Part shown: one piece after another, positions 3,107 to 62,665 of the stretch
How the letters are laid out: each line of letters begins with the position of its first letter
Numbering within the stretch: position 1 is the stretch's first letter
NCBI GenBank assembly: GCA_038116985.1
Contig: JAYOEZ010000006.1
Location: forward strand, 7,903 to 71,902
DNA from: Alphaproteobacteria bacterium
GTDB taxonomy: Bacteria; Pseudomonadota; Alphaproteobacteria; SHVP01
Length of the DNA stretch: 64,000 bases
Reading direction: 5' to 3'
Position numbers and translations under genes: made by a program
Notes under the pieces: generated by a model
The model's database searches: none
Told to the model about the DNA's origin: nothing
The model's input: the letters and a program-made list of their open reading frames with translations, nothing else

Positions 3107-3910
3107 GTGCCCGACCCGGTCGGCGACTTCTCCTTCACCTGGCCGTACTTTGCGGTATTCATCGCCGCCTATCTCCTCGGGTCTGTTCCGTTCGGTGTGA
3201 TCCTGACACGCCTGGCCGGCGCCGGGGATCTGCGCGCGATCGGCTCGGGCAACATCGGCGCCACCAACGTGCTGCGGACCGGACGTCGTTCGCTCGCGGC
3301 CGCGACGCTCATCCTCGACGGGGCAAAGGGCGCCCTCCCCGTCATCCTGGCCGAACACTTCTTGTTCCGCGACCAGGCGATCATCGCCGGTGTGGGCGCC
3401 GTGCTCGGACACATGCTGCCAATTTGGCTGATCGGCTCCAGCCGGCACGGCACCATCTTCGCGCTGCGCGAGGCGCTGCTCCTGATTGTCGGGTTCGGCG
3501 TGACCCTAATCGGCAAAGGACCGGTCAGCCTGGTCGGCGCCGCGATGTTGGTCGCGAGCACGCTGTTCGCCTGGGGTGGCAAGGGTGTGGCGACCGGGCT
3601 CGGTGTCCTGTTGGCAGCCAATCCAGCGGTCGGCGTCCTTGCGTGCCTCACCTGGCTGATTGTTGCCCTGGTGTTTCGATATTCCTCCCTGGCGGCGGTC
3701 TGCGCTTTCGTCGGCGCGCCGATCTTCGCCTGGATCCTGTCCGTGACGCAGGTCGCGGGGGCCTATTGGTCGGATCCGCAACGTATGGAGTTCGCGGTCT
3801 TCGTCGCCCTGGTCGTCCTCATCCGGCACGGCGGCAACATTGGCCGTCTGTTGCGTGGGGAGGAGCCGCGGATTGGCCAGGGAAAGGAACAAGGACGAGC
3901 CGCCACCTGA
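3107..3910 (+). CDS. plsY: glycerol-3-phosphate acyltransferase PlsY carrying an unusual internal insertion of about 48 aa
   Basis: Seen: GTG start 3 nt after the pyrC stop. PlsY motifs SGNIGATNVLRTG and GGKGVAT are present. A hydrophobic insert sits between HMLPIWL and GGKGVAT (residues about 109-156). Total length is 267 aa against a usual 195-215. Confidence 0.85.
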   Translation: MPDPVGDFSFTWPYFAVFIAAYLLGSVPFGVILTRLAGAGDLRAIGSGNIGATNVLRTGRRSLAAATLILDGAKGALPVILAEHFLFRDQAIIAGVGAVLGHMLPIWLIGSSRHGTIFALREALLLIVGFGVTLIGKGPVSLVGAAMLVASTLFAWGGKGVATGLGVLLAANPAVGVLACLTWLIVALVFRYSSLAAVCAFVGAPIFAWILSVTQVAGAYWSDPQRMEFAVFVALVVLIRHGGNIGRLLRGEEPRIGQGKEQGRAAT

Positions 3911-3938
3911 GTGCTCCAACCCGTCGATTCACGATCTG

Positions 3939-4142
3939 GTGGACCGCCTTCGCCTGATCCGCAGCGACAACGTCGGCCCCATCACCTATCACGCCTTGCT
4001 CGCGCGCTTCGGCAGTGCGAGAGATGCGATCGTCGCGCTTCCCTCCCTTTCGAAGCGCGGCGGCCGCCGAACCCCAATCAGACCCCCGGATGTCGCTGCC
4101 ATCGAAGAGGAACTGGCAGCCGCGGCTCGAATCGGCGCCTAA
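3939..4142 (+). pseudogene. dprA: DprA N-terminal (SAM/HhH-like) domain fragment, ended by an in-frame TAA at 4140-4142
   Basis: Seen: translation LRLIRSDNVGPITYHALLARFGSARDAIVAL matches the DprA N-terminal consensus. It is in the same frame as the downstream DprA core and separated from it only by TAA plus one codon. The start is uncertain (GTG 3939 proposed; the track ORF starts at TTG 3840 inside plsY). Confidence 0.6.
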
Positions 4143-4145
4143 CCC

Positions 4146-5015
4146 TTGGTGCACGGTACGCCGGACTATCCGGTATTGCTTGCCGCTATCGCGGATGCGC
4201 CGCCGATCCTCTACGCCATCGGCTCGCACGCGCTGCTCCAGCGTCCGGCCGTGGCGATCGTCGGCGCTCGGAACGCTTCGGCGGTTGGCCGCCGGTTCGC
4301 ACACGACCTCGCGGCGGAACTCGGGTCGGCGGGTTTGCCGGTCGTTTCCGGACTCGCGCGCGGGATCGATACGTCGGCGCATCTTGGCGCATTGGAAAGT
4401 GGAACCATCGCCGTCATGGCAGGGGGCGCCGACTACGTTTATCCGCCCCAGAACGAATCGCTGCACGCCGAAATCTGCGCACAGGGGTGCGTCGTATCCG
4501 AGATGCCGCCCGGCAGCGAACCTCGCGCCCAGCACTTTCCACGGCGCAATCGAATCGTCGCCGCTGTTGCATCTGCGGTAGTTGTGGTTGAAGGAGCTGC
4601 GCGTTCCGGCTCACTCATCACAGCACGTCTCGCCGGGGAATATGGACGAGATGTGCTGGCGGTCCCTGGTTCGCCGATGGACCCTCGCGCCCGCGGTCCC
4701 AACGCATTGATCCGACAGGGCGCCGCCCTTTGTGAAAGCGCTGACGACGTCCTTGCGCTGTTGGAACCGGCACGAGCGTCGCGTGTGCCATTGCCCGTCG
4801 ACGCACAGCCCGATCCACCCGGTTGCGAAGAAGAAGCGAGCGAATCGGAGCGGGACCGCATCGTTGCCGCCCTCAGCGTGGCGCCCGGTGACATCGACGA
4901 TATCGCCAGGCTCTGCGCCAGCACCCCGCAAACGGTCGTTGCCGTGGTCATGGAACTCGAACTGGCCGGACGCGCTCAAAGACTTCCGGGGCACCGGGTG
5001 CAGCTGTTGGGCTAG
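4146..5015 (+). CDS. dprA: DNA-processing protein DprA (Smf), Rossmann-fold core; the 5' part is separated by an in-frame ochre codon
   Basis: Seen: PDYPVLL, PAVAIVGARNASAVGRRFA, VVSGLARGIDTSAH, SGSLITARLA. This is a strong DprA signature. The ORF begins at TTG directly after TAA-CCC. Confidence 0.85.
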   Translation: MVHGTPDYPVLLAAIADAPPILYAIGSHALLQRPAVAIVGARNASAVGRRFAHDLAAELGSAGLPVVSGLARGIDTSAHLGALESGTIAVMAGGADYVYPPQNESLHAEICAQGCVVSEMPPGSEPRAQHFPRRNRIVAAVASAVVVVEGAARSGSLITARLAGEYGRDVLAVPGSPMDPRARGPNALIRQGAALCESADDVLALLEPARASRVPLPVDAQPDPPGCEEEASESERDRIVAALSVAPGDIDDIARLCASTPQTVVAVVMELELAGRAQRLPGHRVQLLG

Positions 5016-28698: not shown

Positions 28699-29865
28699 AT
28701 GCCTTCACCGACACCTTTCGAGCGGATGCAGCGTCACGGCGCAATCGTCGCTTCGAATCATGACGAACTCGCCATGGAAAACTTCGCGCAGGCAATGCAC
28801 TTCGAAGTCTTCGGACACCTCATGCCGGGCAACAAGGAAGTTTACAACGCCAGGGTTCTTCCCAAGTTCAGGAAGCGGGAGGGCCGGACGCCGACGAACC
28901 GGCGCGAGGTTCGCGCCGAGATGCGCGAGGACCCCTACCATCAGACGTGGAGCGCGCTGCGCCGCACGACCCAGGAAATGATGTGGGTTGCGACCGACAC
29001 CTGTCTGAACCGGACCTACGACGAACTCCATCGCCGCGCACAGCCGCCGCGGAAACAGCTCGGCTCGCTGGAACTCGATTCTTCTCTCGACCTGCCCCGC
29101 TACATCACCGAAGTCGATATCCACTGCATGCCGGGCGGGTATTGCAGCGAAGCGCTGCCCGACGACGTTTACGCCGGCGCCCTGTACGACCGCGGCGTCT
29201 ATTCGATCACTCAGGGATTTCTAGGGCCCAAGGTCGATGGCTTCGGACGGTCCGCATCGGCCTATATCAAACGCAACTATCCCGACTTCCGAAAAGGTAA
29301 GATCCTCGACGTCGGCTGTGCCGTTGGACACGGTTCGGTCGCGATTGCCGAGGCATTTCCCGATGCTGAAGTGCATGCCATCGACGTCGGCGCACCGATG
29401 GTCCGCTATGCCCACGCGCGCGCCGAAAGCATGGGCGTGCCCGTTCATTTCTCGCAGCAGAGCGCCGAGGCGATGCGCTACGACGACGACACTTTCGACT
29501 TCGTCGTTTCTGGGGCGACCCTGCACGAACTCTCTACGGCCGGGATCAAGAACATCATCCGAGAGTGCCATCGGGTCCTCAAACCCGGCGGAATCATGAT
29601 CCACATCGAGCAGCCCCAGTACCACGACATGGACCCCTACGATCAATTCATGAGGGATTGGGATACCTTCGGCAACAACGAGCCCTTCTGGGGCACGCTG
29701 CACGACCTCGACCTAGAAAAGCTAGCGGTCGCGGCCGGATTCGAACGGCAAAAGGTGCGCCAGACGCGCGAATGGGGCGACGAGGAGCGCGGCCAGGTCT
29801 ACAACGTGGACAAGCCGGGCGAGAAAGCCGAGCCGCCGTGGTTCTTCTACACGGCAACGAAGTAG
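28699..29865 (+). CDS. two-domain SAM-dependent methyltransferase, paralog 1 (conserved N-domain of unknown function plus a class I MTase)
   Basis: Seen: SAM motif I KILDVGCAVGHG. Conserved blocks shared with the two paralogs: WSALRRTTQEMMW, LELDSSLDLPRYITEVDIHCMPGGY, APMVRYAHARAES, VHFSQQSAE, LHELS, NNEPFWGTLHDLD. ATG 28699 follows GGAG at 6 nt. Confidence 0.8.
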   Translation: MPSPTPFERMQRHGAIVASNHDELAMENFAQAMHFEVFGHLMPGNKEVYNARVLPKFRKREGRTPTNRREVRAEMREDPYHQTWSALRRTTQEMMWVATDTCLNRTYDELHRRAQPPRKQLGSLELDSSLDLPRYITEVDIHCMPGGYCSEALPDDVYAGALYDRGVYSITQGFLGPKVDGFGRSASAYIKRNYPDFRKGKILDVGCAVGHGSVAIAEAFPDAEVHAIDVGAPMVRYAHARAESMGVPVHFSQQSAEAMRYDDDTFDFVVSGATLHELSTAGIKNIIRECHRVLKPGGIMIHIEQPQYHDMDPYDQFMRDWDTFGNNEPFWGTLHDLDLEKLAVAAGFERQKVRQTREWGDEERGQVYNVDKPGEKAEPPWFFYTATK

Positions 29866-29872
29866 GCCCAAC

Positions 29873-31051
29873 GTGAAGCCCGTCGGGTTCCGCCACATCG
29901 GTCAACATGGCGTTCTCGCGCCGACCGAGCACGACGAGGCCTCGCGCGAGGACTTCATCGCCTCGATGTACTTCGCCGTCCAGGCGGACGTGTTTCCTGG
30001 AAATAGGGTCGCGTGGGACAGTCGAGTGCGCCCGGCCTTTGTCCGGGAAACAGGCCGGGAACCGCAGGACCGTCATGAAATCCGCCGCGCCATGGCGGCT
30101 GAGCCGATGTTCCAGTGGTGGAGCAGCCTTCGTCGGACCACCCAGGAGATGAAGCAGGCGACCGGCGAGGAATTCGTGCATCGTCAAACCGGTCCGATCA
30201 ACGACACCGTGGCCCGCCTAAACCGGAACGGGCGCGGCACGCTGAGACTCGATCCCGACCTCGCCATTCCACGTTACGTCGGAAAGGTCGACTTTCACGG
30301 TCAGCCCGGCGGCTATCTCGCGGAGCGCTGCGACAATGACGTGTCGCCCGCGGCGATCTACGACCCCGGGGTATTCGTGCTGACCAAGGGCTTCATGGGC
30401 CCCTATTGCGAGGCGGCGGGCGCATCGGCCATCCATTTCCTGAAGAGCCGGTTTCCCACGTTCTCGCCGGGCCGGATTCTCGACATGGGGTGCGCCGTTG
30501 GGCACAGCACGTTGCCCTACGCCGACGCCTATCCCGATGCACATATCGACGCCATCGATCTCTCCGCACCGATGCTGCGCTACGCCCATGCGCGGGCGAC
30601 TTCGCTCGGTTACGCGCTGCACTTCTCCCAGCAGAATGCCGAGCACACGGACTTCGCGGATGAGTCGTTCGACCTCGTCGTCTCGCACATCGTTCTGCAC
30701 GAGACCTCGCGAAGCGCACTCATCAACATTGTGAACGAATGCCATCGCCTGCTGCGCCCCGGCGGACTGATGCTGCACGTCGAACAACGCCAGCACGAGG
30801 ACATGGAGGCGTTCGAGCAGTTCTATTACGACTGGGACACGCTCAATAACAACGAACCGTTCTGGGGAACGCTGCACGACATGGATCTTATCAAGGTCGC
30901 CCGCGACGCAGGATTCGACCAATCGCGCGTGATCCACGAAATGGTGCCGAACCTGGTCGCCGCCGACATGCTCAAAGGAGTGATCGACGACGGGAAAGAC
31001 TTCAAGCGAACCGCGGTGTGGTTCGCCTTTGGCGCCAGAAAGAGCAGCTAG
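29873..31051 (+). CDS. two-domain SAM-dependent methyltransferase, paralog 2 (tandem with paralog 1)
   Basis: Seen: GTG 7 nt after the paralog-1 stop. ILDMGCAVGHS, LRLDPDLAIPRYVGKVDFHGQPGGY, VLHETS, NNEPFWGTLHDMD. The stop TAG shares a CTAG palindrome with the stop of the convergent pgm gene. Confidence 0.8.
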   Translation: MKPVGFRHIGQHGVLAPTEHDEASREDFIASMYFAVQADVFPGNRVAWDSRVRPAFVRETGREPQDRHEIRRAMAAEPMFQWWSSLRRTTQEMKQATGEEFVHRQTGPINDTVARLNRNGRGTLRLDPDLAIPRYVGKVDFHGQPGGYLAERCDNDVSPAAIYDPGVFVLTKGFMGPYCEAAGASAIHFLKSRFPTFSPGRILDMGCAVGHSTLPYADAYPDAHIDAIDLSAPMLRYAHARATSLGYALHFSQQNAEHTDFADESFDLVVSHIVLHETSRSALINIVNECHRLLRPGGLMLHVEQRQHEDMEAFEQFYYDWDTLNNNEPFWGTLHDMDLIKVARDAGFDQSRVIHEMVPNLVAADMLKGVIDDGKDFKRTAVWFAFGARKSS

Positions 31052-37354: not shown

Positions 37355-38470
37355 ATGAGCGATTTCGTTGAGTGCATCGTTGTTGGCGCCGGCGTAGTGG
37401 GGTTGGCCTGCGCACGAGCGATTGCGCAATCGGGGCGGCAGGTCCTCGTCCTCGAAAAAGAGCCGTTGATCGGTAGCGAGACCAGTTCGCGCAACAGCGA
37501 GGTGATCCACGCCGGAATCTACTATCCGCCGGAATCGCTCAAGGCGGCGCTCTGCGTTCGCGGCAAGGATATGCTGTACGACTACTGCGAGACACAGGGG
37601 ATTCCGCACGGCCGCTGCGAGAAGCTCGTCGTCGCGGCCAACGCGGGCGAAGTCGCCGCACTGGAGCGAATTCGGCAAAACGCCCTCGCGAGTGGCGTTC
37701 ACGACCTTGAGCTGATCGACGGCGCGGCGGCAACACGCCTGGAGCCGAAGCTTCGTTGTCACGCCGCGCTCAGGTCGCCCTCGACAGGTATTCTGGACAG
37801 CCACCAGTACATGCTGGCCCTCGAGGGCGACATCGAGAATGCCGGGGGTTCGGTTGTGCCGCGCAGCTACGTTGCGGAAGCGCGCCGGGCCGGGGAAACG
37901 TTCGAGGTCGTGGTGGAAACCGAGGAACCCGAGCCGATCGTGGTTGCCAGCCGAATGCTCGTGAATGCGGCCGGGCTCTGGGCGCAGCAGGTTGCGCAGA
38001 GGGTCGAGGGTATGCCGCCTGAGCGCATCCCGAAGCAGTACCTGGCCAAAGGCAACTACTTCGTGATGAGCGGCAAGGCGCCGTTTTCGCGCCTCATCTA
38101 CCCTTTGCCGACCGCCGCCAGCCTTGGACTGCACTACTCGATCGACCTCGGCGGCCAGGTCCGCTTCGGACCCGATGTCGAGTGGGTGGAGCGGATCGAC
38201 TATCGTGTCGATGCGACGCGCGCTGCCGCGTTCGAAGCCGCAATCCGCCGATATTTCCCGGAACTGCCCCGCGCCGCGCTGCAACCAGGATATGCGGGCG
38301 TCCGCCCCAAGATCGTCGGACCAGACGATCCGGCCGGCGACTTCGTGATCCAGGGAGAGGGCGAGCACGGCGTCGCAGGGCTCGTCAACCTGTTCGGGAT
38401 CGAGTCGCCCGGGCTCACCTCTTCGCTTGCCATCGCGGAGGAGGTGGCCTCGCGCTTGCTGGGCCGGTAG
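37355..38470 (+). CDS. FAD-dependent oxidoreductase (L-2-hydroxyglutarate oxidase/dehydrogenase-like, LhgO/YgaF family)
   Basis: Seen: CIVVGAGVVGLACARAIA dinucleotide fold. C-terminal GIESPGLTSSLAIAEEV is typical of this DAO subfamily. Confidence 0.75.
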   Translation: MSDFVECIVVGAGVVGLACARAIAQSGRQVLVLEKEPLIGSETSSRNSEVIHAGIYYPPESLKAALCVRGKDMLYDYCETQGIPHGRCEKLVVAANAGEVAALERIRQNALASGVHDLELIDGAAATRLEPKLRCHAALRSPSTGILDSHQYMLALEGDIENAGGSVVPRSYVAEARRAGETFEVVVETEEPEPIVVASRMLVNAAGLWAQQVAQRVEGMPPERIPKQYLAKGNYFVMSGKAPFSRLIYPLPTAASLGLHYSIDLGGQVRFGPDVEWVERIDYRVDATRAAAFEAAIRRYFPELPRAALQPGYAGVRPKIVGPDDPAGDFVIQGEGEHGVAGLVNLFGIESPGLTSSLAIAEEVASRLLGR

Positions 38471-46255: not shown

Positions 46256-46858
46256 CTACCAGCCGCCCTTCTCCAGCCACGCGGCCATGTCGGGAAGCCG
46301 GTCCATGCCCCAGAACGGTTCATCACCGATGAAGAAGAACGGCGAGCCGAACACGCCCCGCTCCAATGCCGCCTCGACTTCGTCCTTCACCCGCGCCTTG
46401 ATGGCGGGGTCCTGGATCGCGGCAAGCAGCGCGTCCCGGTCGATACCAACGGACGCGGCGACGTCGGCGGTTTCCTCCGGCGGACTGACATCGCGTCCTT
46501 CGCCGAAATAAGCGTGATAGAACGCCTTGGCGAAGAGACGCGCCTTGTCCGGGTGGGTGTCGTTGAGCCAGTAGAAGCCCCGCGCCGCCGCCAGCGTCCC
46601 GTGGGGAAACCCTTCCGGCATCTTGCAGGGGGCGCCGAGCCGGCGCGCTGATCGGGCGATGTCATGGGCCGCGTAGCGGCCCTTGATCGGGTAGCCGAGC
46701 AACGGGCCTGTCCCTACTTTCTTGAAAGCCGCGCCGAGCAGAATTGGCCGCCACGCCAGGGCGCAATCGCGTGCCGCCGCCCAACCGTCGATCTGCAGAC
46801 TTGCGAGATAGCCGTAGGGCGACGCGAAATCGAAATAGAAATCAATGGTTTGTGCCAT
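46256..46858 (-). CDS. 2-hydroxychromene-2-carboxylate isomerase family protein (DsbA-like thioredoxin fold)
   Basis: Seen: [16 protein letters not shown]-terminus and C-terminal [21 protein letters not shown]. Confidence 0.8.
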
Positions 46859-46906
46859 GGCCGCCAGTCTAGGCCATGGCCACGACCGCCGCCACACAAC
46901 AGGCGG

Positions 46907-47530
46907 CTAGCCGCGCACGGCGCTCAGGCGGCCGGCGCGCGACAACCACATGTCGAGGTAGGGCAGCCGGTCATGTCCCCAGAATCCTTCGCCATCGACC
47001 GTGAACCACGGCGCGCCCACCATGCCCGACGCGATGGCGTCGTCGATCGCCGCCTGATGCTGCATCCCGCCGCTCTCGCTTTCCGCATAGCCCCGAACGA
47101 CGACCCGCGACAGGTTGAAACGCCGCAGGCCCGCGGCCACTTCGTCGATGCTCTGCAGCGCCTTGCCCTGGGCCCAGATGACCGATAACGCGGCAAGACA
47201 CATGGTCCGCAACTGCGCTTCGTTGCCGTCGGCGAGCGCGTAGCAGGTGGCGTAGAGAGCGTCGCAGTCGAAGGGCGGCTCGCGCCCGGAAGGCCTGATG
47301 AAGGGCAGCCCGCGAAGACGGCACACGCGTTCGGCGTCGTGACGCCAATAGGCGAGCTTTCGCGCGTCGGGCCGCGCCGCGCTTCCCAGCTGTTCGAAGA
47401 CACGGGAGAGACGGACCGGCCGCCATAGAACCTCACGCTCGTGACGGTAGGCGATCTCGTCGATCAGCTGTGCGGCGATGTAGGAATAGGGCGAACCGAA
47501 GGCCGGATAGAAAACGATCGGCCCGGCCAT
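46907..47530 (-). CDS. second 2-hydroxychromene-2-carboxylate isomerase/DsbA-like paralog (tandem)
   Basis: Seen: IVFYPAFGSPYSYIA ... GAPWFTVDGEGFWGHDRL. Paralogous to the preceding gene. Confidence 0.8.
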   Translation of the reverse strand: MAGPIVFYPAFGSPYSYIAAQLIDEIAYRHEREVLWRPVRLSRVFEQLGSAARPDARKLAYWRHDAERVCRLRGLPFIRPSGREPPFDCDALYATCYALADGNEAQLRTMCLAALSVIWAQGKALQSIDEVAAGLRRFNLSRVVVRGYAESESGGMQHQAAIDDAIASGMVGAPWFTVDGEGFWGHDRLPYLDMWLSRAGRLSAVRG

Positions 47531-48767: not shown

Positions 48768-49499
48768 CTATCGGAAACCGCGGTGTCCCGGAACCCCATC
48801 CACGGCGGCAGGCTGCATCGTGCGTGCCTCGGGCTCGCCAGCGCCGACGATGCGTCCGTCGGGCAACGTCAGGCCAAGGGTAATATCGGCAATGGTCAAG
48901 AATGCTGAAATCGGCCCGTCGCCGTCGGCGACCGGAAGCCACAGTCTGTCGTACATGGTCGTCGACCCGGCGCCATCGACGCCCGTGATACGGCAGACGC
49001 CAGGCCGCCCGAACTCAACCAGCGCCTCGTAGCTGCGGCAAACGCCCTCCGCGACAGGCGCCGAGGGAAAACCCCCGACGGTGGTCGGCCGAAACGCTCC
49101 GAACTCGCCGAAGCCCTCGCCGAGATGCAAGAACGGCCATTTGGACGTCGGCTGATCACGCAGGATGCGCACGAGTGTCGTGTAGGGCGTATTGAGCGCC
49201 GGCCGTTCCAGCAGCGATATTCCACTTTAGCCGGCATGGTCGACGAACACGCCCTGCGGACACGCCACTTCCATGAAATCGGCGAACGCGTTGCGCAGCA
49301 CCGGCGACCACATGTCGCTCAGCGGATAGCCGGAAACCTCGCAGCGACCGTCATCGACAGAGATGAAGCCGCTGTAGGTCTCGCCCAGAATATCTGCAAC
49401 GGTTGCGAGCATGCCGGTCCCCCCACCGAACGAAGCCCTCTCTCGACGCCTCCCCAGACGTCTGGACCCTATCGTTTCAGACTTGGTGCCGTTCCTCAA
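48768..49499 (-). pseudogene. hypothetical protein reading frame interrupted by an in-frame TAA (minus strand, plus coordinates 49227-49229)
   Basis: Seen: track ORFs 49227-49499 and 48768-49172 are in the same frame on the same strand, separated by a single TAA. No family recognised. Low confidence that it is a single gene. Confidence 0.35.
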
Positions 49500-49549: not shown

Positions 49550-50719
49550 ATGAGGGGACAAGCTCTGCACGGCATTCTGCCGGACGAGACGCACGACGAA
49601 ATGTCGCGTCAGGACTTTGTGACCAGCTTCAAGGTGCACGTCCTCACGCAGCTTTCTGGCGGCAACAAGACCGCCTTCTTAACCAGCGCAGTGCCCCGTT
49701 TCCGGCGCAAGACGGGACACGAACCAGAGAATGCCCGCGAGGTCGCGCAGGCGATGCGGGACGAACCGTTTTGGCAGACCTGGAGCTCGCTCAACCGCTC
49801 GGGCCAGGAGTTGATGTGGGAAGCGCTCGGCGAGCGCACCGGGCGCCAACTCGACGACCTCAACAGCAAGGCGCGCGAGGTGGCCCAGCGCACGAAGAAG
49901 AAGGGCACGTTGCGTCTGAACCCCAAGCTTGAGACGCCGCGCTACAACAGCGAGATTCACATCCACTGCCAGCCGGGCGGCTATCACTCGGAGCTCACCA
50001 GCGACGATGTGTTTGCCGGCGCGCTGTATGACGTGGGTGCCTATCAGTACGGCATGGGAGGCCAGGGCCCGTGGACGGACGACGTCGGCCTGACGGTCGG
50101 CCACGTCCTCAACGAACGGTTTCCCGATTTCAAACCGAAGCGCATCCTCGACTTGGGTTGCGGCGTCGGGCATCAGACGCTCGGCCTGGCGGAGGCCTTT
50201 CCGGACGCCGAAATCCATGCCTGCGATCTTGGGGCGCCGATGGTTCGGTATGCGCACGCGCGTGCGGAATCAGTCGGCAAGGCCGTTCACTTCTCACAGC
50301 AGAACGCCGAGCACACCGACTTTCCCGACGGGAGCTTCGATCTCGTGACCTCGATGATTTTGTTTCACGAGACCTCGACGAAGGCGATCCCCAACATCAT
50401 CAACGAAAGCTTCCGCCTACTGCGGCCGGGCGGGTTGATGGTTCACGGCGACGTGCCGGAGTTCAACAAGTTCTGGCCCGAACCCTACGACCGCTTCCAG
50501 CGCGACTGGACCACGCATTTCAACGCCGAACCCTTCCGCAGCAAGATGCGGGAAATGGACATGGGCGACATTGCGAAGAAGGCGGGGTTCAAGGCTTCGA
50601 CGATCAGCGAGGAACTCGTGCCGAGCGTCTTCGGCCAGTCCGGCTATTCCAACACGTCGCTCTACGGAAAGACCCATGCCTACGGGATGAAGTGGTGGGT
50701 CCTCCTGGCGCAGAAATAG
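49550..50719 (+). CDS. two-domain SAM-dependent methyltransferase, paralog 3
   Basis: Seen: ILDLGCGVGHQT, LRLNPKLETPRYNSEIHIHCQPGGY, APMVRYAHARAESVG, VHFSQQNAEHTDF, FHETS. ATG 49550 verified. Confidence 0.8.
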   Translation: MRGQALHGILPDETHDEMSRQDFVTSFKVHVLTQLSGGNKTAFLTSAVPRFRRKTGHEPENAREVAQAMRDEPFWQTWSSLNRSGQELMWEALGERTGRQLDDLNSKAREVAQRTKKKGTLRLNPKLETPRYNSEIHIHCQPGGYHSELTSDDVFAGALYDVGAYQYGMGGQGPWTDDVGLTVGHVLNERFPDFKPKRILDLGCGVGHQTLGLAEAFPDAEIHACDLGAPMVRYAHARAESVGKAVHFSQQNAEHTDFPDGSFDLVTSMILFHETSTKAIPNIINESFRLLRPGGLMVHGDVPEFNKFWPEPYDRFQRDWTTHFNAEPFRSKMREMDMGDIAKKAGFKASTISEELVPSVFGQSGYSNTSLYGKTHAYGMKWWVLLAQK

Positions 50720-50739: not shown

Positions 50740-51594
50740 ATGAAGATCAATCCGGTTTCGCCCGTCATGGGCGCAGAGATTCTTGATCTCGACCTCGCCG
50801 AGCCCATCGACGACACAGCGTTCGAGGAGATTCACAAGGCCTTCCTTGAGCACATTGTGCTGGTGTTTCGCGACCAGACCCTGACGCCGGCCCAACACGT
50901 GGCCTTCAGCCGACGTTTCGGCGACCTCATGGTTCACGTAAAGGCCGAGTACCTGCTGCCGGACCAGCCCGAGGTGCTCATCCTATCGAACAAGAAGCAC
51001 CCCGACGGTCGCCCCATGGGCTTCGAGGATGCCGGGCGCTATTGGCATTCGGACATGTCCTACGTCGAGGAACCGCCGTTGGGTTCACTGCTGTACGCGG
51101 TTGAGATTCCACCCGCCGAGGGCGACACCCTGTTTGCCAACATGTACCTCGCGTATGACGCATTGCCCGACGAAACCAGGCAGCGGCTGGAAGGCCTCAC
51201 GGCGGCGCATTCGTACCTCGCCAGCTTCGAAGGCAAGACCAAGATCGGCTCGGGCCGCGACACGTTGACGGACGAACAGAAGGCGCAACTGCGCGAAGTG
51301 ATTCATCCCGTCGTACGGACCCACCCCGAGACGGGCCGCAAGGCGCTCTATGTGAATCCAGGCTTCACGGTGCGAATCGAGGGGCTGCCGGATGACGACG
51401 CGGCGTCACTGTTGGACGATCTGATCGAACATGCCTCGCGGCCACAATTCCAGTACCGCCACGCGTGGCGGCCCCACGACCTTGTGTTCTGGGACAACCG
51501 CTGCGCCATGCACCACGCGACGCTGTATGACCGGCAGTACGCACGGCATATGCACAGGACAACGGTGAAAGGCGACCGTCCTTTCGCCGCCTAG
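50740..51594 (+). CDS. TauD/TfdA-family Fe(II)/2-oxoglutarate-dependent dioxygenase
   Basis: Seen: HSD metal triad region WHSDMSYVEEPP with a later H, and an R near the C-terminus. 284 aa from ATG 50740, 21 nt after paralog 3. Confidence 0.85.
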   Translation: MKINPVSPVMGAEILDLDLAEPIDDTAFEEIHKAFLEHIVLVFRDQTLTPAQHVAFSRRFGDLMVHVKAEYLLPDQPEVLILSNKKHPDGRPMGFEDAGRYWHSDMSYVEEPPLGSLLYAVEIPPAEGDTLFANMYLAYDALPDETRQRLEGLTAAHSYLASFEGKTKIGSGRDTLTDEQKAQLREVIHPVVRTHPETGRKALYVNPGFTVRIEGLPDDDAASLLDDLIEHASRPQFQYRHAWRPHDLVFWDNRCAMHHATLYDRQYARHMHRTTVKGDRPFAA

Positions 51595-53528
51595 AGCCGG
51601 TCCACCAACCGCATCGCGTCGTCGGTCGCCGCCCAGAAGGTGCGCGGCGCCAGACAATCGCCAATCGCCAGCGTCGCTTCCGGGAAGTCCCGCGGCACCG
51701 TTCCGGTGGACAACACAATATCGTCGAACGGTCCAAGGCTTCCCCCGGAAGCAAGTTCGGCTTGCCCGTTGCGCAGCCGCGTGACGGTCGCACCGGGCAC
51801 AACGACAATTCCGGCTGCGGCCATGCGCGCCATCACCTCCGCCGCCTCGACGGTGAAGGCCAGTTCGGGTAGGGCGGGGTGCTGTCCGGGCGTCGCGACC
51901 GTCACCGTGTCGACGCCATCACCTTGCGCCAGTGTTTCGGCCAGCGAGATCGTCGGCCAACCGCCCTCCTCGTCAATGACCAGAATCTTGCCGCGCACCT
52001 GGGCCTGACCGAGCAGGACCGCGCGACCGTGGACGCAGGATTCGGTGCCAGGAATACCGTCAAGCAGATGCGGCCGCCGACGCCATACGGCGCTTTGCGC
52101 GGGCGCGCCACCGGTAGCCCAGATCACGGTGTCGGCTGACGGCGGTTCCGCCGGGTCGATCTCGCGGCCGCATTCCACCGTCACGCCGAGATCGGCGAGC
52201 GCGCGTTCCCACCAGTCGATCCCTGCGAGCAACGGACCACGATGCGGCGCTTCGCCAGCAAGCCGCAGATCGCCGCCGAGGCGCGCCCGAGATTCGTAGA
52301 GCCGGACCGTGTGGCCCCGCGCTGCAGCGCGGCGCGCCGCTTCGAGCCCAGCCGGCCCGCCGCCGACGACAGCAACCGTCCCTCGCTGGGCGGTTCGCTT
52401 GGGGCGGGCGAATTCGCGCCCGGCGCGCGGATTCACGACGCACGTCGCGGGGCCGATGCTGCGCTGGGCGAACGTGCAGGCCTGGTTGCACGAGATGCAC
52501 GGCCTGATCGCAGCCTCCCGATTCTGTTCGATCTTCGCCAGCCAATCGGCATCAGCGATCCAGGTGCGCGCCATCGCGACGATGTCGGCGTCGCCCGACG
52601 CCAGGACGTCTTCGACCTCGCCCGGCGTGCGCATGCTGCCGGCGACCATCACCGGCACACCCAGCGTTTTCCGGAACCGCGATGCCGCCTGGCGCAAGTG
52701 CGCCGGGGCCGCAGTCATCGTCGGCATCAGGTCGGCGAGCGCAAAGTGCGATCCGGTAATCAGACTGACGTAGTCGACCAGTCCCTTGTCGACAAGAACC
52801 TTCATGGCGGCGAGCGAATCGGCCTCGCCATAACCTTCGGCGTAGGCCGGGACGTTGTGCGCCAGCGAGGTGCGCACCGCGACCACCATGTCGCCACCGG
52901 CCGCCTCGCGCACCGCAGTCACGACACGCAGGATGAGCCGCATGCGGTTCTCCAGCGACCCGCCATATTCGTCGGTGCGCCGGTTGAAGACGGGATTGAG
53001 AAAGGATCCCAGTAGATAGTCGGACGAGGTCTGAACCTCCACCGCATCCAGGCCCGCCGCGCGGCACCGCGCCGCCGCCTGGGAATAGGCCTCGACGAGT
53101 TCATCGATGTCCGCATGTGACATCGCCTTGGGCAACTCCGCGAATTGAGCTGAGGGCACCGGCGACGGCGCCCACACCGGGCCGGCGCCGAGATGGGTCA
53201 TGTTGTGCCCGGCGTGCCACAGGATCACCGAGAGGCAGGATCCCTGGTCGTGCACGGCGGCGGACAGCGCTCGCAGGCCTGGAACGACGGCATCGTCGAA
53301 CAGGTGCGGCCTAACGCCCTTGATCGAGGACGGATGCACGGGCGATGATTCCAGCCCCACCATCGCTGCTCCGCCCCTGGCCCGTTCGACCATGTAGGCA
53401 TGTAGGCGGTCCCCCACCCCGCCCCGGCCGTCGCCCAGCCCCATGTGGTGGCCGCTCATGACGACCCGGTTTCTGAGGGTGATCGACCCTATGTCCAGCG
53501 GCCGGAAGATATGCGGATAGTCGGTCAT
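51591..53528 (-). CDS. OYE-family Fe-S flavoprotein oxidoreductase (dimethylglycine demethylase DgcA / trimethylamine dehydrogenase / 2,4-dienoyl-CoA reductase type)
   Basis: Seen: N-terminal FMN/TIM-barrel region, 4Fe-4S motif CISCNQAC...C, and a C-terminal FAD/NAD Rossmann (VAVVGGGPAGLEAARRAAARGHTV). 645 aa from ATG 53528. Confidence 0.85.
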   Translation of the reverse strand: MTDYPHIFRPLDIGSITLRNRVVMSGHHMGLGDGRGGVGDRLHAYMVERARGGAAMVGLESSPVHPSSIKGVRPHLFDDAVVPGLRALSAAVHDQGSCLSVILWHAGHNMTHLGAGPVWAPSPVPSAQFAELPKAMSHADIDELVEAYSQAAARCRAAGLDAVEVQTSSDYLLGSFLNPVFNRRTDEYGGSLENRMRLILRVVTAVREAAGGDMVVAVRTSLAHNVPAYAEGYGEADSLAAMKVLVDKGLVDYVSLITGSHFALADLMPTMTAAPAHLRQAASRFRKTLGVPVMVAGSMRTPGEVEDVLASGDADIVAMARTWIADADWLAKIEQNREAAIRPCISCNQACTFAQRSIGPATCVVNPRAGREFARPKRTAQRGTVAVVGGGPAGLEAARRAAARGHTVRLYESRARLGGDLRLAGEAPHRGPLLAGIDWWERALADLGVTVECGREIDPAEPPSADTVIWATGGAPAQSAVWRRRPHLLDGIPGTESCVHGRAVLLGQAQVRGKILVIDEEGGWPTISLAETLAQGDGVDTVTVATPGQHPALPELAFTVEAAEVMARMAAAGIVVVPGATVTRLRNGQAELASGGSLGPFDDIVLSTGTVPRDFPEATLAIGDCLAPRTFWAATDDAMRLVDRL

Positions 53529-55265: not shown

Positions 55266-56153
55266 TTGTGGATGATGGGGACACTCGTTTCCTTCTCCAT
55301 GGTCGGCATCGCGACGCGTCATCTGACGGATGCGGGCCTGCCGGTCCTGCAGGTCTTGCTGCTGCGCGCGTCGATCGGCCTGATCGTCTTGTCGCCGATC
55401 GTGTTGCTGCGCGGCTGGTCGACGGTGGCAACAGCGCAGTGGCGGCTACACGGCGTGCGCAACGTGCTGCACTACGGCGCCAGCTACGCTTGGTACTACG
55501 GGATCGCCGTCTTGCCGCTGGCCAACGTGTTCGCCATCGAGTTCACCGCGCCCATATGGGTCGCGCTCCTTGCCGTGCTGATCCTCGGGGAGAAGCTGGA
55601 TGTGGGCCGTGGCGTTTCAATCGGCCTCGGCGTGCTGGGCATGATGATCATCGTGCGGCCCGGCTTCGCCGCATTTTCGCTGGATTCGCTAGTCGTGCTG
55701 GGAAGCGCCCTGGGATTTGCCTGCGCGCACATCGCGACGAAGGGCCTGACGCGGACCAATACGGCGCTCAAGGTGCTGTTCTGGATGGCCGCGATGCAGT
55801 TTCCCATTGCGCTCGGCCCGGCATTGGCGGTGTGGACACCGATCGAGGGGTTCTCGTGGCTATGGGCGGCGGTGATGGGCGTCAGTGCGCTGAGTGCCCA
55901 TTTCTGCCTGACCAACGCGCTCAGTCTGGCCGACGCCAGCGTCGTCGTGCCCATGGACTTCCTGCGCATCCCGTTGATCGCGCTGGTCAGCCTGGTGGTG
56001 TTCGCCGAACCGATCGACATCTGGGTGCTGGTCGGCGCGGCGGTGATCTTTTCGGGCGTCTACTACAGCATCCGCCGCGAACACCGGCGCAGCGCCGCCG
56101 TGTCGGTGGCGACACCGCCTCTCGAGATCGTCGGGAGCGACAAGGAACCCTAG
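55266..56153 (+). CDS. EamA/DMT-family transporter (10 TM)
   Basis: Seen: two EamA half-domains. Paralogous to the gene at 61784. Confidence 0.8.
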   Translation: MWMMGTLVSFSMVGIATRHLTDAGLPVLQVLLLRASIGLIVLSPIVLLRGWSTVATAQWRLHGVRNVLHYGASYAWYYGIAVLPLANVFAIEFTAPIWVALLAVLILGEKLDVGRGVSIGLGVLGMMIIVRPGFAAFSLDSLVVLGSALGFACAHIATKGLTRTNTALKVLFWMAAMQFPIALGPALAVWTPIEGFSWLWAAVMGVSALSAHFCLTNALSLADASVVVPMDFLRIPLIALVSLVVFAEPIDIWVLVGAAVIFSGVYYSIRREHRRSAAVSVATPPLEIVGSDKEP

Positions 56154-58115
56154 CTAGAGCGTGCGCGCGAGGCGGGCCGCGTCGTGGGTCGCCGCCCAGA
56201 TGCCGCGCGGCGACAGACAGTCGCCGATGCCGTGCCCGCCGTCGGGGAAGTCCCGCGATACGGCGCCGGTGGCAAGTACGATCGAATCGAACGGACCCAG
56301 CAAGCGCCCGTCGCGCGTCTTGACCGAGCCGCCACTGATCTCCTCAACGACCGCGTTCGGTACTGTTTCGATGCCGGCGGCACGGATGCGCGCTGCAATG
56401 TCGGGCAACTCGCGGGTGAAGGTCAGTTCCGCCTCCCCCCAGACAGCCTCTGTCGTGGCGACCGTGACCTTGCTGACGCCATCTCGACCGACCAGCGTTT
56501 CGGCAAGAGAAATCGCGCTCCACCCGCCTTCCTCGTCGACAATCAGGACGTGGCCGGCAACCTGCTTCTCGCCGGTCAGCACCTCGCGGCCATGGGGCAG
56601 ACCCTCGCCGCCGGGGATGCCGTCCTGCAGCCACGGGCGCAGACGCCAGATGGCGGTGGGGCCGGGGTCTGATCCGAGCGCCCACACGACCTCGTCGGCG
56701 TCGAGTTCATCGGCCGAGGCGACCTTGGTCCCCAGCTTGATCTCGACCTGACGCTGGCGCAGTTCGGTTTCCCACCAGGTCAGGGCATCCTTCATCTCGT
56801 CACGGTGGGGCGCATCGGCGGCAAGCCGCATCAGCCCGCCGAGACGATCTTGCGCCTCATAAAGGGTGACCCGGTGGCCGCGGGCAGCCGCGACGCGAGC
56901 CGCCTCCATGCCCGCCGGGCCGCCGCCGACGACAGCAATCTTCTTCGGCTTTGCAGCCGGCTCCGGGTTGAGCGCGATCTCACCTTCACGGCCCGCGGTC
57001 GGGTTAAGAACGCACGTGCCTGGAATGTGACGAAACACGAAGCTGACGCAGCCCTGGTTGCAGGACATGCAAGGACGAATGCGATCCTCATGGCCATCGA
57101 TGATCTTGTTCGCCCATTCCGGGTCGGCGATCCACGTGCGCGCCATGGCGACAATGTCGGCGCTACCCTCGGCAATAATGCGCTCGGCATCAGCAGGCGA
57201 GCGGATACGGCCCGCGACGATGACCGGCACCTTGACCGCGGCCTTGAACGCCTTCGATTCCTCGGAGAGCTGGTTCCGCTTCATGTGCATCGGCGGCATG
57301 GTCTCGTGCGGCGCCCAGCGCGAGCCCGAGATGACGCTGACCCAATCGACGAGACCGGCCTCGGCGACGCGCTTCATGGTCTCGACCGATTCTTCCAGCT
57401 TGTAGTCGATCGGCGCGAAGGGAATGTGGTGGGAGGTCGAGGTGCGCACGCCAACGGCCATGTCTGGGCCGGCCGCCTCACGCACCGCCTCGCACACTTC
57501 GAGTACGATGCGGATGCGGTTCTCGTAGGAGCCGCCATAGGCGTCCTTGCGGTGATTCATGGCGGGCGACAGGAACGAGCCCAGGAGATAGCTGGTCGCC
57601 GTCTGCACCTCTACTGCATCGAGCCCGGCCTCGCGGCAGCGGCGGGTCGCCTCTGCGTAGCCCCTGATCAGTTCGCGGATTTCCGCGGCGGTGATGGCGC
57701 GGGGGGTCTCACGCCCGATGTTGGGAATCGGCGAGGACGAAACCGCCGAACGACCTTCGATAAAGGAGACGTTGTGCCCGCCGTGCCACAGGGTGATGGA
57801 CACCTTGGAGTCCGCGGCGTGCACCGCGTCGGCCAGTTTGCGCAGGCTGGGCACGACCTCGTCGGTGTAGAGCCGCACGTTGAGGAAGCGGTTGCCAGAA
57901 GAGGCATGGACCGGCGCCGACTCTGTCCCGAGCATCGACGCCCCGCCCTGGGCGCGGGTCACGACATAGTTGTGCAGTCTGTCCGTAACGCCGCCCGACG
58001 CGTCGTTCAGCGACATGCCGTGCGCGCTCATGGTCGCGCGGTGCTTTAGCGTCATCGGGCCGACCTGGATCGGCGACAACAGATTGGGGTAGCGGGTCTT
58101 GGGATCGTTGCTCAT
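56154..58115 (-). CDS. second OYE-family Fe-S flavoprotein oxidoreductase (paralog of 51591-53528)
   Basis: Seen: CMSCNQGC...C cluster motif and VAVVGGGPAGMEAARVAAARGHRV. Its stop abuts the EamA stop (TAG-CTA). Confidence 0.85.
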   Translation of the reverse strand: MSNDPKTRYPNLLSPIQVGPMTLKHRATMSAHGMSLNDASGGVTDRLHNYVVTRAQGGASMLGTESAPVHASSGNRFLNVRLYTDEVVPSLRKLADAVHAADSKVSITLWHGGHNVSFIEGRSAVSSSPIPNIGRETPRAITAAEIRELIRGYAEATRRCREAGLDAVEVQTATSYLLGSFLSPAMNHRKDAYGGSYENRIRIVLEVCEAVREAAGPDMAVGVRTSTSHHIPFAPIDYKLEESVETMKRVAEAGLVDWVSVISGSRWAPHETMPPMHMKRNQLSEESKAFKAAVKVPVIVAGRIRSPADAERIIAEGSADIVAMARTWIADPEWANKIIDGHEDRIRPCMSCNQGCVSFVFRHIPGTCVLNPTAGREGEIALNPEPAAKPKKIAVVGGGPAGMEAARVAAARGHRVTLYEAQDRLGGLMRLAADAPHRDEMKDALTWWETELRQRQVEIKLGTKVASADELDADEVVWALGSDPGPTAIWRLRPWLQDGIPGGEGLPHGREVLTGEKQVAGHVLIVDEEGGWSAISLAETLVGRDGVSKVTVATTEAVWGEAELTFTRELPDIAARIRAAGIETVPNAVVEEISGGSVKTRDGRLLGPFDSIVLATGAVSRDFPDGGHGIGDCLSPRGIWAATHDAARLARTL

Positions 58116-58201
58116 GGGGCCCTCCTCCGGGAGGCCCCCATGATGGCAGGCCGACCGGTCCAGCCCAAGTGGCTGGCCGGTCGATTAAGCCATGCGGACG
58201 A

Positions 58202-60508
58202 TCAGGTGTGGTCGGGCAACGCTGCCGGATCGGGACGACCAGTCAGGAGTTTCTGGCCCTCGTCGAGCTTGAAGAAGCCGACAAGACGAACGAGCTCGGT
58301 TGCCTGCGACCCCAGCGCCTGGACCGCGGCCGTCGTCTGCTCGACCAGCGCAGCGTTCTGCTGGGTCATGCTGTCCATCTGCGAGATGGCCGAGTTGACT
58401 TCGCCGAGGCCGCCGGACTGCTCCTCGCTGGCGCGCGCCACCTCGTCGATGATCGAGGCAACCTTCTGCACCGCACTGATGATCTGGCCGAGCGCTTCAC
58501 CCGCGCCGTTGACCGGATTGACGCCGTTCCCGACATGCGCGGAACTGGTCTCGATGAGCTGCTTGATCTCGGTTGCAGCCTCGCCGGAGCGCTGTGCGAG
58601 CGAGCGCACCTCCGAAGCGACCACGGCAAAACCCTTGCCGGCATCGCCGGCGCGGGCAGCTTCGACCGAAGCGTTCAACGCCAGAAGATTGGTCTGGAAG
58701 GCGATGTCCTCGATCACGTTGACGATCTAGGAGATCGACTTGGAGGACTCCTCGATCTCCGCCATCGCGGCGACCGCGTCGGTGACGATCTTGCCACCGC
58801 TGTCCGCTTCCTTGCGCGTCTCCGCAACGAGCTTGTTGGCCTCCTGCGCGTTGTCGGCATTGCGGCGCACGGTGCCCGTCATCTCTTCCATCGCGGCCGC
58901 GGTTTCTTCCAGGTTGGCCGCCTGCTGCTCGGTGCGCTGCGCCAAGTCGTCGGCGCCCTGCCCCAACTCGTGGGATGCGTTGTTGACGTTGTCCGTCGTG
59001 CTGCGAATGTCCTTAACGAGATCTGCTAGCGTGCCGGCCATGCCGTTGAGGTCGTTCTTGAGCTGCAGGAACGCGCCCTGATAGTTGCCGGTGACGCGGC
59101 TCCCGAGATCGCCCTTGGACAATGCTTCCGCGACGCCCATGACCTCGCTGAGGCCCTGGTCGACGGTCTCGACGAGCTGGTTGAGCGACTCGGACAGGCT
59201 CAGCATGAAGCCCTCTTTGCCAACGGTCTCGACGCGCGCCGAGAAATCGCCGACGGCTGCAGCGCCGACCACAGCGTCGATTTCCTCGCCCGCCTTCTGC
59301 TCCATGTCGCGCCGGTTCTCGATCTGAACGGCGTTCTCCTTGAAGACCTCAAAGGCTTCGGCCATGTCGCCGATCTCGTCGCTGCGGCCCTTGCCAACGA
59401 CAGCGACATCAAGCCGGCCCTCGGCCAGATCGCGCATCGCCGTGGCGAACTGGCGCAGGGCGCCGGAAACGCTGCGACCAATGGCCGTGGTGGCCACAAT
59501 AGAGACAACCAGCATGATCGCGCCGACGATAGCAGCTGCCCAGATCATGAACTCCAGCAGCGCCTGTGTCCCGTCGGTGGCCTCATGGCTTCGTTCACGA
59601 AAACTCTCAAGTTTCTCGTGGAGAATTTCCTGCGCCTCGCTGGCAGCACCGTCAATGAGATCATCGAGGCGCGCAAAAGCCCGCTCACCCTCGCCAAACT
59701 GGATCACAGCGGACGCAAGATCGCTACGGATCACGCCACCCCAGGTATCAAACAGCGCGATCAGTTCGTCGGTTACCGCGCTGACGTTTTGCGAGCGCTC
59801 TATCGCGGCAATTTCCGTCAGAACTTCGGTGGCAGCAGCAATCTGCTCGTCGACGATCGCGATACGCTCGGGTTCAACGACACCGTCACTCCTGTCGATG
59901 ATGATATCCATCGCAGCGAGATTCGCTTCGGCTGTTGCCTGGGCCAGGGTCTGGATCATGGAGCGGAGGTCGGCAATGCGTGTCGCCGCGCCGCGGCGAT
60001 CGAGCAATGCTTCCAGTTCACCGATCTTCTCGCCGATGGCCCCACCGGTTCCGTCGATGTCATCATCCAGTTCCGCGAAGCGCGTTTCGATTGCGCCGAC
60101 CCCCACGACGGCGTCGTTGAGATCGACCAGGATCACCTTGACGAGTTCAGCGGCGGCCTCGCGCACTCGCGCCAATGCATCACGGTCGTCCGGCTCCTGG
60201 ATGCGCCCCAGCAACTCCTCTACCTGGCGCTCCATCAAGGCACCAGCCTCGCGGACGGCGGTCAGACGCTCCTCTGAAATCTCGCCATCGGCACGATCGA
60301 CGATCGCATCCATCGCAATGAGATTGACTTCTGCAATCTCAAGCTCAAGCGCCTCGACGAGCGCCATGTCGTCGGCCCGCCGTTCGCTGATGGTAAGCTG
60401 TCCATCGACCTGAAGGCCGACGACGATGAACATCACCGTCAGAATGACAATTGTGACCGCACTCAGCGCGGTCAGCGCATTGAGTTTGCGCGCGATAGTC
60501 TACTTCAT
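58202..60508 (-). pseudogene. methyl-accepting chemotaxis protein interrupted by two in-frame amber codons (codon 3 at 60500-60502 and at 58718-58720)
   Basis: Seen: the minus strand reads ATG AAG TAG ACT..., giving MK*TIARKLNALTALSAVTIVILTV (a typical MCP signal-anchor). HAMP region follows, then ...[57 protein letters not shown], the MCP signalling hairpin, all in one frame. Confidence 0.8.
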
Positions 60509-60529
60509 GAGATGCCCCCTTCGTCGCGC

Positions 60530-61603
60530 CTAAAAAGCGCCGAAGCTGAATTCGTGGGTCAGCAGCAGGCCGACGGTGTGGCTGTCGACGTCTGCGTCCT
60601 CGACATACCGATAGCCGAGGCTGAGATTGAAGCCGCGATAGATATCGCGTCCGACGCTGAACTGGAACAGTTCATCGTCGGTATTTGCCTGGCCGCCCGC
60701 TTCCGGGTCGATCGAACGGGTCGAATATGACCCTTCAAAGGCCCATGGGCCGTTGATGAGACCGAGCCCGAGGGTCGCGTAGGTACGGTCTTCCTCGGCA
60801 GCCTTGGCGTTCTGGAAGAATGCGATTTCGACCACGTGGGTGAGCGTCCAGTCTTGTCATACCGGAACGTCGCCGAAGATCGCGACCGCAACGGCGTTCT
60901 CGTCCTCGGGATTGCCCTGGCCGGCGGCCAGGTGATCGTAGCTGATCTGGTAGTTGACGCCGGCGAGCGGGCCCGGCGCTTCGCCGGTAAGGATGGTGCT
61001 GAAGGACGACAGGTCGCCGGTGTTGCTGGCGCCACCGTCGCCCTCGCGGGTCTGCGCGCGGCGCTGGAACCACGAGCGGCTGAGGCCCGAGTGATCCTGG
61101 TAGAAGGTGTTGACGGAGAACGTCTGCGCGGTGCCGCCGGGGCCGGTGAAGTCGAACGAGGCACCGAGGCCGATGCGCTCGGTCAGTTCGTAGTCCTCGG
61201 CGAAATCGGAGCCATAGATACCCGGCGTCAGGTCCCAGGCGACGCCGAACGGCGGCGCGTACTTGCCCGCGGTGAGGGTCGCCGGGCCGCGCGCGTAGCT
61301 CAGGTACAGATCCTTCACGTAGAGGCCCTGGTCGCTGAAGAAGCGGTCGTTGGTGGGGTCGTTGATGGGTTCGTAGGTCAGACCCGCTTCAAGCGACAGC
61401 CCGTGGCCGAGACGCAACGATATTGCCGGTTCGATGGTCGTGTAGGTATCGGCGAGTTCCGCATCTCGATCTGCGGAGTCGTAGACGCCATCGAACTGAA
61501 TCTCGATCGGTACCGTGACTTCAAGACGATGGTCTTCCTGGGCCGAGGCGATGGTGGGCACGAGAATCGTGATGGCCGCCAGACCAGCAAACAAACTACG
61601 CAT
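60530..61603 (-). pseudogene. outer-membrane beta-barrel protein interrupted by an in-frame TGA (60857-60859)
   Basis: Seen: signal peptide MRSLFAGLAAITILVPTIASAQE. The downstream same-frame ORF ends ...THEFSFGAF (OMP C-terminal aromatic signature). The two are separated only by ...GDVPV*QDWTLTHVVEIAFF. Confidence 0.6.
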
Positions 61604-61783: not shown

Positions 61784-62665
61784 ATGAGCCCGACCGTCCG
61801 CGGGGCGCTGTGGATGTTCGGCATGGTGGTGTCGCTGTCGCTGCTCGCCATCGCGGCGCGCGAGCTCGCCGACCGCCACAATCCCATGGAATTGCAGGTG
61901 GTGCGGCACGGGCTGAGCCTGCTCATCCTGTTCCCCTTCGTCGCCCGGGCCGGATTCCGCCCTGTCCGGACCAACAACTTCAGGCTTCAGATATTCCGCA
62001 ATCTGGCACATTTCGCGGCGACCATCGGCTGGTACGCCGCCGTCACGGTGCTGCCGCTGGCCGAAGTCTTCGCCATCGAGTTCACGACGCCGGTGTGGGT
62101 CGCCCTGCTGGCGGTACTGTTCCTGGGCGAGAAGATGAATCGCGGGCGGGTGGCGGCGCTGGTGCTGGGGCTGGTCGGCATCATGGTGATCCTGCGGCCG
62201 GGCTTCGCGGAAGTCGGCTGGGGCACCTGGATGATGGTGGCGGCGGCCTTCGGCTTCGCCATCGCCAACGCCTGCACCAAGGGCCTGACGCGGACCGACA
62301 GCGTGCTGACGGTGCTGTTCTGGATGTCGCTGCTGCAGGGCGCGATGGCGCTGGTGGGGGCGTCCTTCGCGTGGACGGCACCGACTGTGGACGAGATCCC
62401 GTGGCTGGTGATCGTCGGCCTGATGGGGCTGGCGGCGCATTTCTCGCTCGCCAAGGCGCTGACCCATGCCGACGTGTCGCTGGTCAACCCGGTGGACTTC
62501 CTGCGCCTGCCGCTGATCGCGGTGGTCGGCTTCTTCGCCTACGGCGAGGCGGTGGAAATCTGGGTCTATCTGGGGGCGGCGCTGATCTTCGTGGGCAACT
62601 ACTACGCCATCCGGCGCGAGTCGCGTCCTTCGACACGGATGCCTTCGTCGTCCGGCTCAGGATAA
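61784..62665 (+). CDS. EamA/DMT-family transporter, paralog 2
   Basis: Seen: VLPLAEVFAIEFTTPVWVALLAVLFLGEKM here against VLPLANVFAIEFTAPIWVALLAVLILGEKL in the gene at 55266. Confidence 0.8.
   Translation: MSPTVRGALWMFGMVVSLSLLAIAARELADRHNPMELQVVRHGLSLLILFPFVARAGFRPVRTNNFRLQIFRNLAHFAATIGWYAAVTVLPLAEVFAIEFTTPVWVALLAVLFLGEKMNRGRVAALVLGLVGIMVILRPGFAEVGWGTWMMVAAAFGFAIANACTKGLTRTDSVLTVLFWMSLLQGAMALVGASFAWTAPTVDEIPWLVIVGLMGLAAHFSLAKALTHADVSLVNPVDFLRLPLIAVVGFFAYGEAVEIWVYLGAALIFVGNYYAIRRESRPSTRMPSSSGSG

Follow-up and report, generated by a model that had tools for sequence, protein, structure and literature searches.

The gene for a methyl-accepting chemotaxis protein (MCP) in the 64-kb window (the whole stretch of DNA analysed here, 64,000 nucleotides) is very probably a recently point-mutated, inactivated nonsense allele read under the standard genetic code, its two in-frame TAG codons belonging to a scatter of several premature stops.

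A chemoreceptor frame with two amber codons

Translation of the minus strand between 58202 and 60508 gave a single MCP frame of 768 codons, which opens with MK*TIARKLNAL... and finishes with ...ALPDHT*, the terminator being TGA. Together with direct reading of the DNA, this translation bears out the two TAGs that the initial annotation had placed within one MCP frame. The features of the gene are the following.

58202..60508, minus strand: methyl-accepting chemotaxis protein gene, identified by its domains and by end-to-end alignment with an intact 770-aa orthologue (75% identical)
60515..60522, minus strand: Shine-Dalgarno-like GAAGGGGG, read directly, 6 nt before the MCP ATG
60500..60502, minus strand: premature TAG at MCP codon 3 (DNA ATG AAG TAG ACT); ancestral codon TGG (Trp)
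58727..58729, minus strand: premature TAG at MCP codon 594 (DNA TCC TAG ATC); ancestral codon GAG (Glu)

When orthologous proteins of 770 aa were used in tblastn searches, the whole of residues 1-770 was aligned as one segment (75% identity), and the subject contained two stops and no more. Judged from its sequence, the locus is one real gene frame, and chance juxtaposition of open reading frames is excluded. The position of GAAGGGGG sets the start codon at 60508 and so places the codon-3 TAG inside the gene. The homologues share a conserved N-terminus, M-x-W-T-I-x-R-K-L, and the alignment of orthologous DNA agrees with a start at 60508.

The architecture of the protein consists of a first transmembrane segment (TM1), a periplasmic region of ~290 aa, a second transmembrane segment (TM2), HAMP, HAMP_2 and MCPsignal, with hydrophobic stretches at approximately residues 12-32 and 317-343 as read directly from the sequence. 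In Pfam searches the upstream piece matched HAMP (PF00672) and HAMP_2, and the downstream piece alone matched MCPsignal over its C-terminal two-thirds (142 bits). After restoration of Trp and Glu at the interrupted codons, the match to MCPsignal (PF00015) was of 170 bits and covered profile positions 2-172 of 172, with the codon-594 TAG falling within this domain, ~27 residues ahead of the hairpin tip. A HAMP linker is thus placed after the second transmembrane segment and the signalling domain carries the conserved hairpin sequence, both as in MCPs, while the two in-frame TAGs leave the reading frame interrupted. By domain content the gene is assigned to the MCP family, yet it is no intact member.

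The periplasmic sensor region (59550-60410, minus strand; residues ~33-320) matches no Pfam family. Within it, the internal repeat NL(I/A)AMD(A/I)I(V/I)DR..G occurs at approximately residues 61-75 and again at 196-210, suggestive of a helical module that has been duplicated.

Ancestral codons at the interrupted positions

Both TAGs stand at positions where intact orthologues have sense codons, as in nonsense pseudogenes generally. In a large protein collection, all the full-length MCP homologues were intact, with lengths of 758-772 aa and identities of 50-75%; the homologue set also includes two proteins cut by contig ends. Codon 3 corresponded to Trp in all eight homologues covering the position, and to TGG in the four loci read as DNA, namely L001 (an ENA contig), L084 and L087 (from the JGI contigs L084-L087) and L002 (a GTDB MAG, and the closest locus among GTDB genome representatives, 61% identical). 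Codon 594 corresponded to Glu in seven of eight homologues and to Ala in the remaining one, and the DNA read GAG in L084 and L002 and GCG in L087. Given the TGG and GAG codons of the orthologous loci, the codon-3 amber is evidently a TGG to TAG change (G to A) and the codon-594 amber a GAG to TAG change (G to T). A further protein, P0006 (568 aa), was considered as a second truncated MCP and rejected, being merely cut by a contig end.

The order acyl-CoA dehydrogenase, cupin, EamA, porin, MCP and OYE-type flavoenzyme is conserved among these loci, with the porin missing from L002. The MCP loci compared are true orthologues, all of them intact. The part of this order formed by porin, MCP and OYE-type flavoenzyme (56154-61603) is kept in related populations (L001, L084-L087), which hints at a functional unit.

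At residue 667 of the MCP (58508-58510, minus strand) there is a Pro where every homologue covering the position has Leu. Located in a helix of the signalling domain, this substitution is possibly a third damaging change of the allele.

Other interrupted genes in the window

The initial annotation had also held that no other TAG interrupted a gene nearby. This held for TAG, but not for stops in general, as three further genes were found to be broken by a TGA or a TAA.

60530..61603, minus strand: porin gene, 357 codons; the downstream fragment contains the C-terminal part of Porin_4, and homologues support the assignment
60857..60859, minus strand: premature TGA at porin codon 249, where homologues have Ala, Ser, Thr or Gly
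48768..49412, minus strand: conserved hypothetical gene of ~214 codons with an in-frame TAA at 49227-49229, revealed by tblastn of orthologous proteins
3840..5015, plus strand: dprA, interrupted at 4140-4142 by an in-frame TAA; its 5' limit is approximate

The porin gene lies directly upstream of the MCP gene, separated from it by 21 nt, and its TGA is 355 bp upstream of the MCP codon-3 TAG. All nine aligned porin homologues (355-369 aa) read through the TGA position, and in tblastn residues 1-357 were recovered in one segment with one stop. For the hypothetical gene, which matches no Pfam family, the alignment with the L001 orthologue (66% identical) crosses the TAA. In dprA, the gene of a mediator of competence and recombination, the DprA_N, DNA_processg_A and DprA_WH domains are all in one frame, and the TAA, spotted by inspecting a weakly coding stretch, falls between DprA_N and the Rossmann-type DNA_processg_A domain. 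Altogether, the window contains five premature stops (two TAG, one TGA and two TAA) in four of its ~60 genes. No frameshifts were seen, and the orthologues available for the 48-64 kb region each align in one segment. The remaining Pfam-matched open reading frames show the profile coverage expected for complete genes, with the exceptions of a NUDIX match that is weak and partial and of a transporter that runs off the edge of the window.

Regarding the methods of detection, a codon-usage log-likelihood scan for in-frame stops caught the codon-594 (hairpin) TAG and the porin TGA and missed the TAAs at 49227 and in dprA. A frame map of the window was too noisy for use, and an open reading frame listing with TAG read-through was uninformative at 64% GC, where spurious frames abound. 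A metagenome scan with the gene at 37355-38467 found relatives at ≤59% identity only, and no orthologous DNA was obtained for the rest of the window. Four in-frame pairs examined as possible interrupted genes (topA/RNase R, thiolase/DsbA-like, dihydroorotase-like/PlsY and acyl-CoA dehydrogenase/cupin) were rejected, each consisting of separate genes.

The window also carries several sets of paralogues: three SAM-methyltransferases, two of them in tandem, two tandem DsbA-like genes, two OYE-type flavoenzymes and two EamA transporters.

28651-31048, 46259-47530, 49550-50716, 51594-53528, 55266-56153 and 61784-62665: SAM-methyltransferase, DsbA-like, OYE-type and EamA paralogue sets

Presence of the stops in independent assemblies

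Logan assemblies, which are independent and built one per SRA run, were consulted for runs SRR26337559, SRR26337560 and SRR26337561. Four of the five stops were matched at 100% identity in Logan contigs from the three runs. The porin TGA and the MCP codon-3 TAG were found together on two contigs identical to the window (L082 and L083, from SRR26337560 and SRR26337561), the TAA at 49227 on another identical contig (L089), and the dprA TAA on two more (L170 and L171, from SRR26337561 and SRR26337559), which are identical to the window and show the same split gene calls. As these four stops appear in independent assemblies, they are present in the reads and are not a product of the MAG assembler. 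The fifth, the hairpin TAG at 58727, has the NCBI MAG contig as its sole source; Logan coverage of this position was sought with the 171-aa C-terminal fragment and two guessed partial products, and no contig was retrieved.

This difference bears on the possibility that the stops are real variants that do not all lie on one chromosome, either through the merging of loss-of-function alleles from sub-strains or through an error at the hairpin TAG, located in the conserved signalling-domain region. Metagenome graphs tangle in highly conserved regions. The two MCP TAGs are 1.77 kb apart in a metagenome assembly, the two Logan contigs that contain the MCP start both end within the gene (at 59366 and 59806), and the Logan gene calls include the fragments produced by the other stops but not the 171-aa one. 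Each of these points, like the support of the hairpin TAG by the MAG contig alone, favours such an artefact. Against it, the other four stops recur unchanged in assemblies made independently from two or three runs, and the porin TGA shares its Logan contigs with the codon-3 TAG. Moreover, the product of the neighbouring OYE gene is missing from Logan as well, so the absence of the MCP fragment may reflect fragmentation. Exact-product look-ups of the OYE protein and of P0002 found no contig. An assembly or haplotype artefact is thus considered unlikely.

Terminator usage and the idea of leaky termination

Among 36 genes of the window whose ends were assigned with confidence, 22 terminate with TAG, 10 with TGA and 4 with TAA. 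TAG also predominates as terminator in the relatives (L001, 8 of 8 genes; L084, 5 of 9; L002, 5 of 7), and six window genes end in TAG precisely at the ends of their orthologous proteins, as determined by tblastn. The porin gene itself terminates with a TAG that is conserved in L001. Published surveys describe a TAG usage that is roughly constant across bacteria and below that of TGA at high GC (PMC8789281), and most of the other high-GC loci compared showed 0-30% TAG. The TAG-majority stop usage of this alphaproteobacterial clade is unusual. TAG was the majority stop also at two other loci, L005 and L029.

A lineage with leaky termination or nonsense suppression, possibly tied to this TAG-majority usage, could tolerate premature stops. 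We regard this as very unlikely; if it were true, some full-length protein would still be expected from the four interrupted genes (MCP, porin, dprA and the hypothetical one).

Age of the lesion

The idea that the MCP and porin genes have long been non-functional and are decaying neutrally would find support in the presence of several stops across two adjacent genes, and in the radical Leu667 to Pro substitution that is unique to the window. However, signs of relaxed constraint, such as a rise in dN/dS, an excess of changes or indels, were not found. Pairwise dN/dS values involving the window genes were 0.15-0.17 for the MCP and 0.10-0.21 for the porin, in the range of the intact orthologue pairs and of the flanking genes. 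In three-taxon relative-rate tests, in which amino-acid changes were counted at columns where the outgroups agree (428 test columns for the MCP), the MCP of the window had 28 unique changes compared to 26 in its sister, and the porin 22 compared to 37, so lineage-specific changes are not in excess. No frameshifts accompany the stops in either gene.

Of the 6894 single-base changes possible in the MCP gene, 167 (2.4%) create a stop. Had neutral drift lasted long enough for two stops to be expected, ~33 additional changes should be present at the 428 columns, a scenario contradicted by the counts (P ~2e-6). Drift expecting a single MCP stop is disfavoured too (P ~0.007). A long history of neutral decay is therefore highly improbable. 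With dN/dS and the relative-rate tests both free of decay, the inactivation of the MCP gene appears to be recent, and the lack of accumulated decay indicates that the stops themselves are very recent. The description of the MCP as a double-hit dead gene in the initial annotation is hence supported as regards inactivation, but not in the sense of an old pseudogene, as decay is missing, nor in that of a TAG-specific event, as TGA and TAA interrupt genes elsewhere in the window.

Amber recoding and programmed read-through as rival explanations

Decoding of TAG as an amino acid, by pyrrolysine insertion or by a suppressor tRNA, would yield full-length MCP and would agree with the finding of two TAGs in one well-conserved gene lacking signs of decay. 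In this respect the MCP gene resembles the pyrrolysine genes mtmB, mtbB and mttB, which have an in-frame TAG within an otherwise intact gene. Pyrrolysine systems have pylTSBCD, keep the TAG in place from one orthologue to another and seldom use TAG as a terminator. Here, in contrast, the TAGs are confined to this population, neither of them being present in any homologue (TGG, GAG or GCG are found instead), no pyl genes were seen in the window, and TAG, far from being avoided, is the commonest terminator both in the window and in its relatives, including the six genes that end in it at orthologue ends. The two TAGs stand for different amino acids, Trp and Glu, and therefore do not behave as a single recoded residue. 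Amber suppressor tRNAs of the supE or supF type would permit partial read-through of both TAGs; none was found in the window, they would leave the TGA and TAA interruptions of other genes unexplained, and they would be costly in a genome context where ~60% of genes end in TAG.

Searches for the machinery itself were negative within the 64-kb window: two scans yielded no credible tRNA (Rfam none at all), neither a tRNA with CUA anticodon nor pylS or pylBCD was detected, and Pfam annotation of ~55 open reading frames gave no pyl or sel gene and none for any other kind of recoding. These results agree with the earlier statement that pyl genes and suppressor tRNAs are missing from the window, and the view that amber suppression is unlikely was likewise supported by the different residues replaced, their conservation as sense codons in homologues and the predominance of TAG as a stop. 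Amber decoding is thus extremely improbable. The lone ARAGORN call, a 98-nt "tRNA-Arg (gcg)" at 12521-12618 (plus strand), lies inside an esterase (alpha/beta-hydrolase) open reading frame at 12054-12965. Given the negative Rfam result for the window, it is very probably spurious. Recoding of TGA was also considered and rejected, since the MCP and thiolase genes end at TGA at conserved C-termini.

Programmed read-through or regulated low expression, with the stops acting as functional attenuators of otherwise intact genes, is hardly credible, as the stops are conserved in no homologue, all three stop types occur in unrelated genes, and no regulatory precedent is known for a codon-3 stop combined with one in the signalling domain.

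Predicted consequences and origin of the stops

Under the preferred reading of a recent nonsense allele, a ribosome starting at the ATG at 60508 would stop after Met-Lys, at the former Trp-3. Downstream of this stop, the first canonical starts in the frame are GTG 60436 and ATG 60433, at approximately codon 25, which is also where the 568-aa truncated product called on the NCBI contig begins. A product from this point would have lost most of TM1, and the TAG at the former Glu-594 would cut any product at codon 593, before the hairpin tip, so that the returning helix would be lost. The hairpin tip of MCPs generally contacts CheA and CheW. No ribosome-binding site was evident for the 171-aa downstream open reading frame. 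With a stop at codon 3 and a cut before the hairpin tip, no signalling-competent receptor would be made, and we infer that the MCP gene is a null allele that the internal starts do not rescue.

As the gap between them is only 21 nt and the TGA lies upstream, the porin and MCP genes may be co-transcribed, and a polar effect of the porin TGA on the MCP gene is possible. Promoter and terminator scans were uninformative on this co-transcription.

The stops would be part of a recent scatter of loss-of-function substitutions, either unpurged or selectively favoured, in dispensable genes, those hit being the genes for the chemoreceptor, the porin, the competence protein DprA and the hypothetical protein. 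Random, recent and unpurged substitutions as the cause of this scatter would fit the data: in such a model, the chance that two of five stops fall in one gene is ~0.2 (a rough estimate), and the missense excess expected per gene is too small to be detected. On the other hand, two nonsense hits in the absence of a measurable missense excess are somewhat unlikely under plain neutral decay. Alternatively, the scatter may come from a natural mutator lineage of the substitution type or from a recent bottleneck, or it may reflect positive selection, with parallel adaptive loss of dispensable surface and behaviour genes in a wild population, or the joining of different loss-of-function haplotypes during assembly.

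Comparison with known systems

In Shigella and Yersinia pestis, chemotaxis and motility pseudogenes are accessory genes inactivated by nonsense mutations. The genes described here resemble them in having premature stops where intact orthologues have sense codons, and in that dispensable, environment-facing functions (chemoreceptor, porin, competence) are hit, but differ in that the window shows only substitutions, with neither frameshifts nor IS insertions. Unlike in classical reductive genomes, there is no measurable relaxation of constraint, and the loss would therefore be much more recent than in those genomes. Regarding the receptor itself, it shares with E. coli Tar and Tsr the succession of TM1, periplasmic domain, TM2, HAMP and signalling domain with the conserved hairpin. 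It differs from them in its ~290-aa periplasmic region, which belongs to no Pfam family and contains an internal repeat, in the additional HAMP_2 and in the frame being broken twice. The MCP gene fits the category of ordinary nonsense-inactivated genes, caught unusually early in the process.

Inactivation of a chemoreceptor allele by point mutations is routine and matters little by itself. The case also advises caution, as an apparent amber-specific signal vanishes once the neighbouring genes are compared with their orthologues. The most noteworthy by-product of the analysis is the TAG majority of the clade, which runs counter to the bacterial trend. This majority may merit genome-wide attention, as may the density of premature stops, five in 64 kb and unaccompanied by frameshifts.
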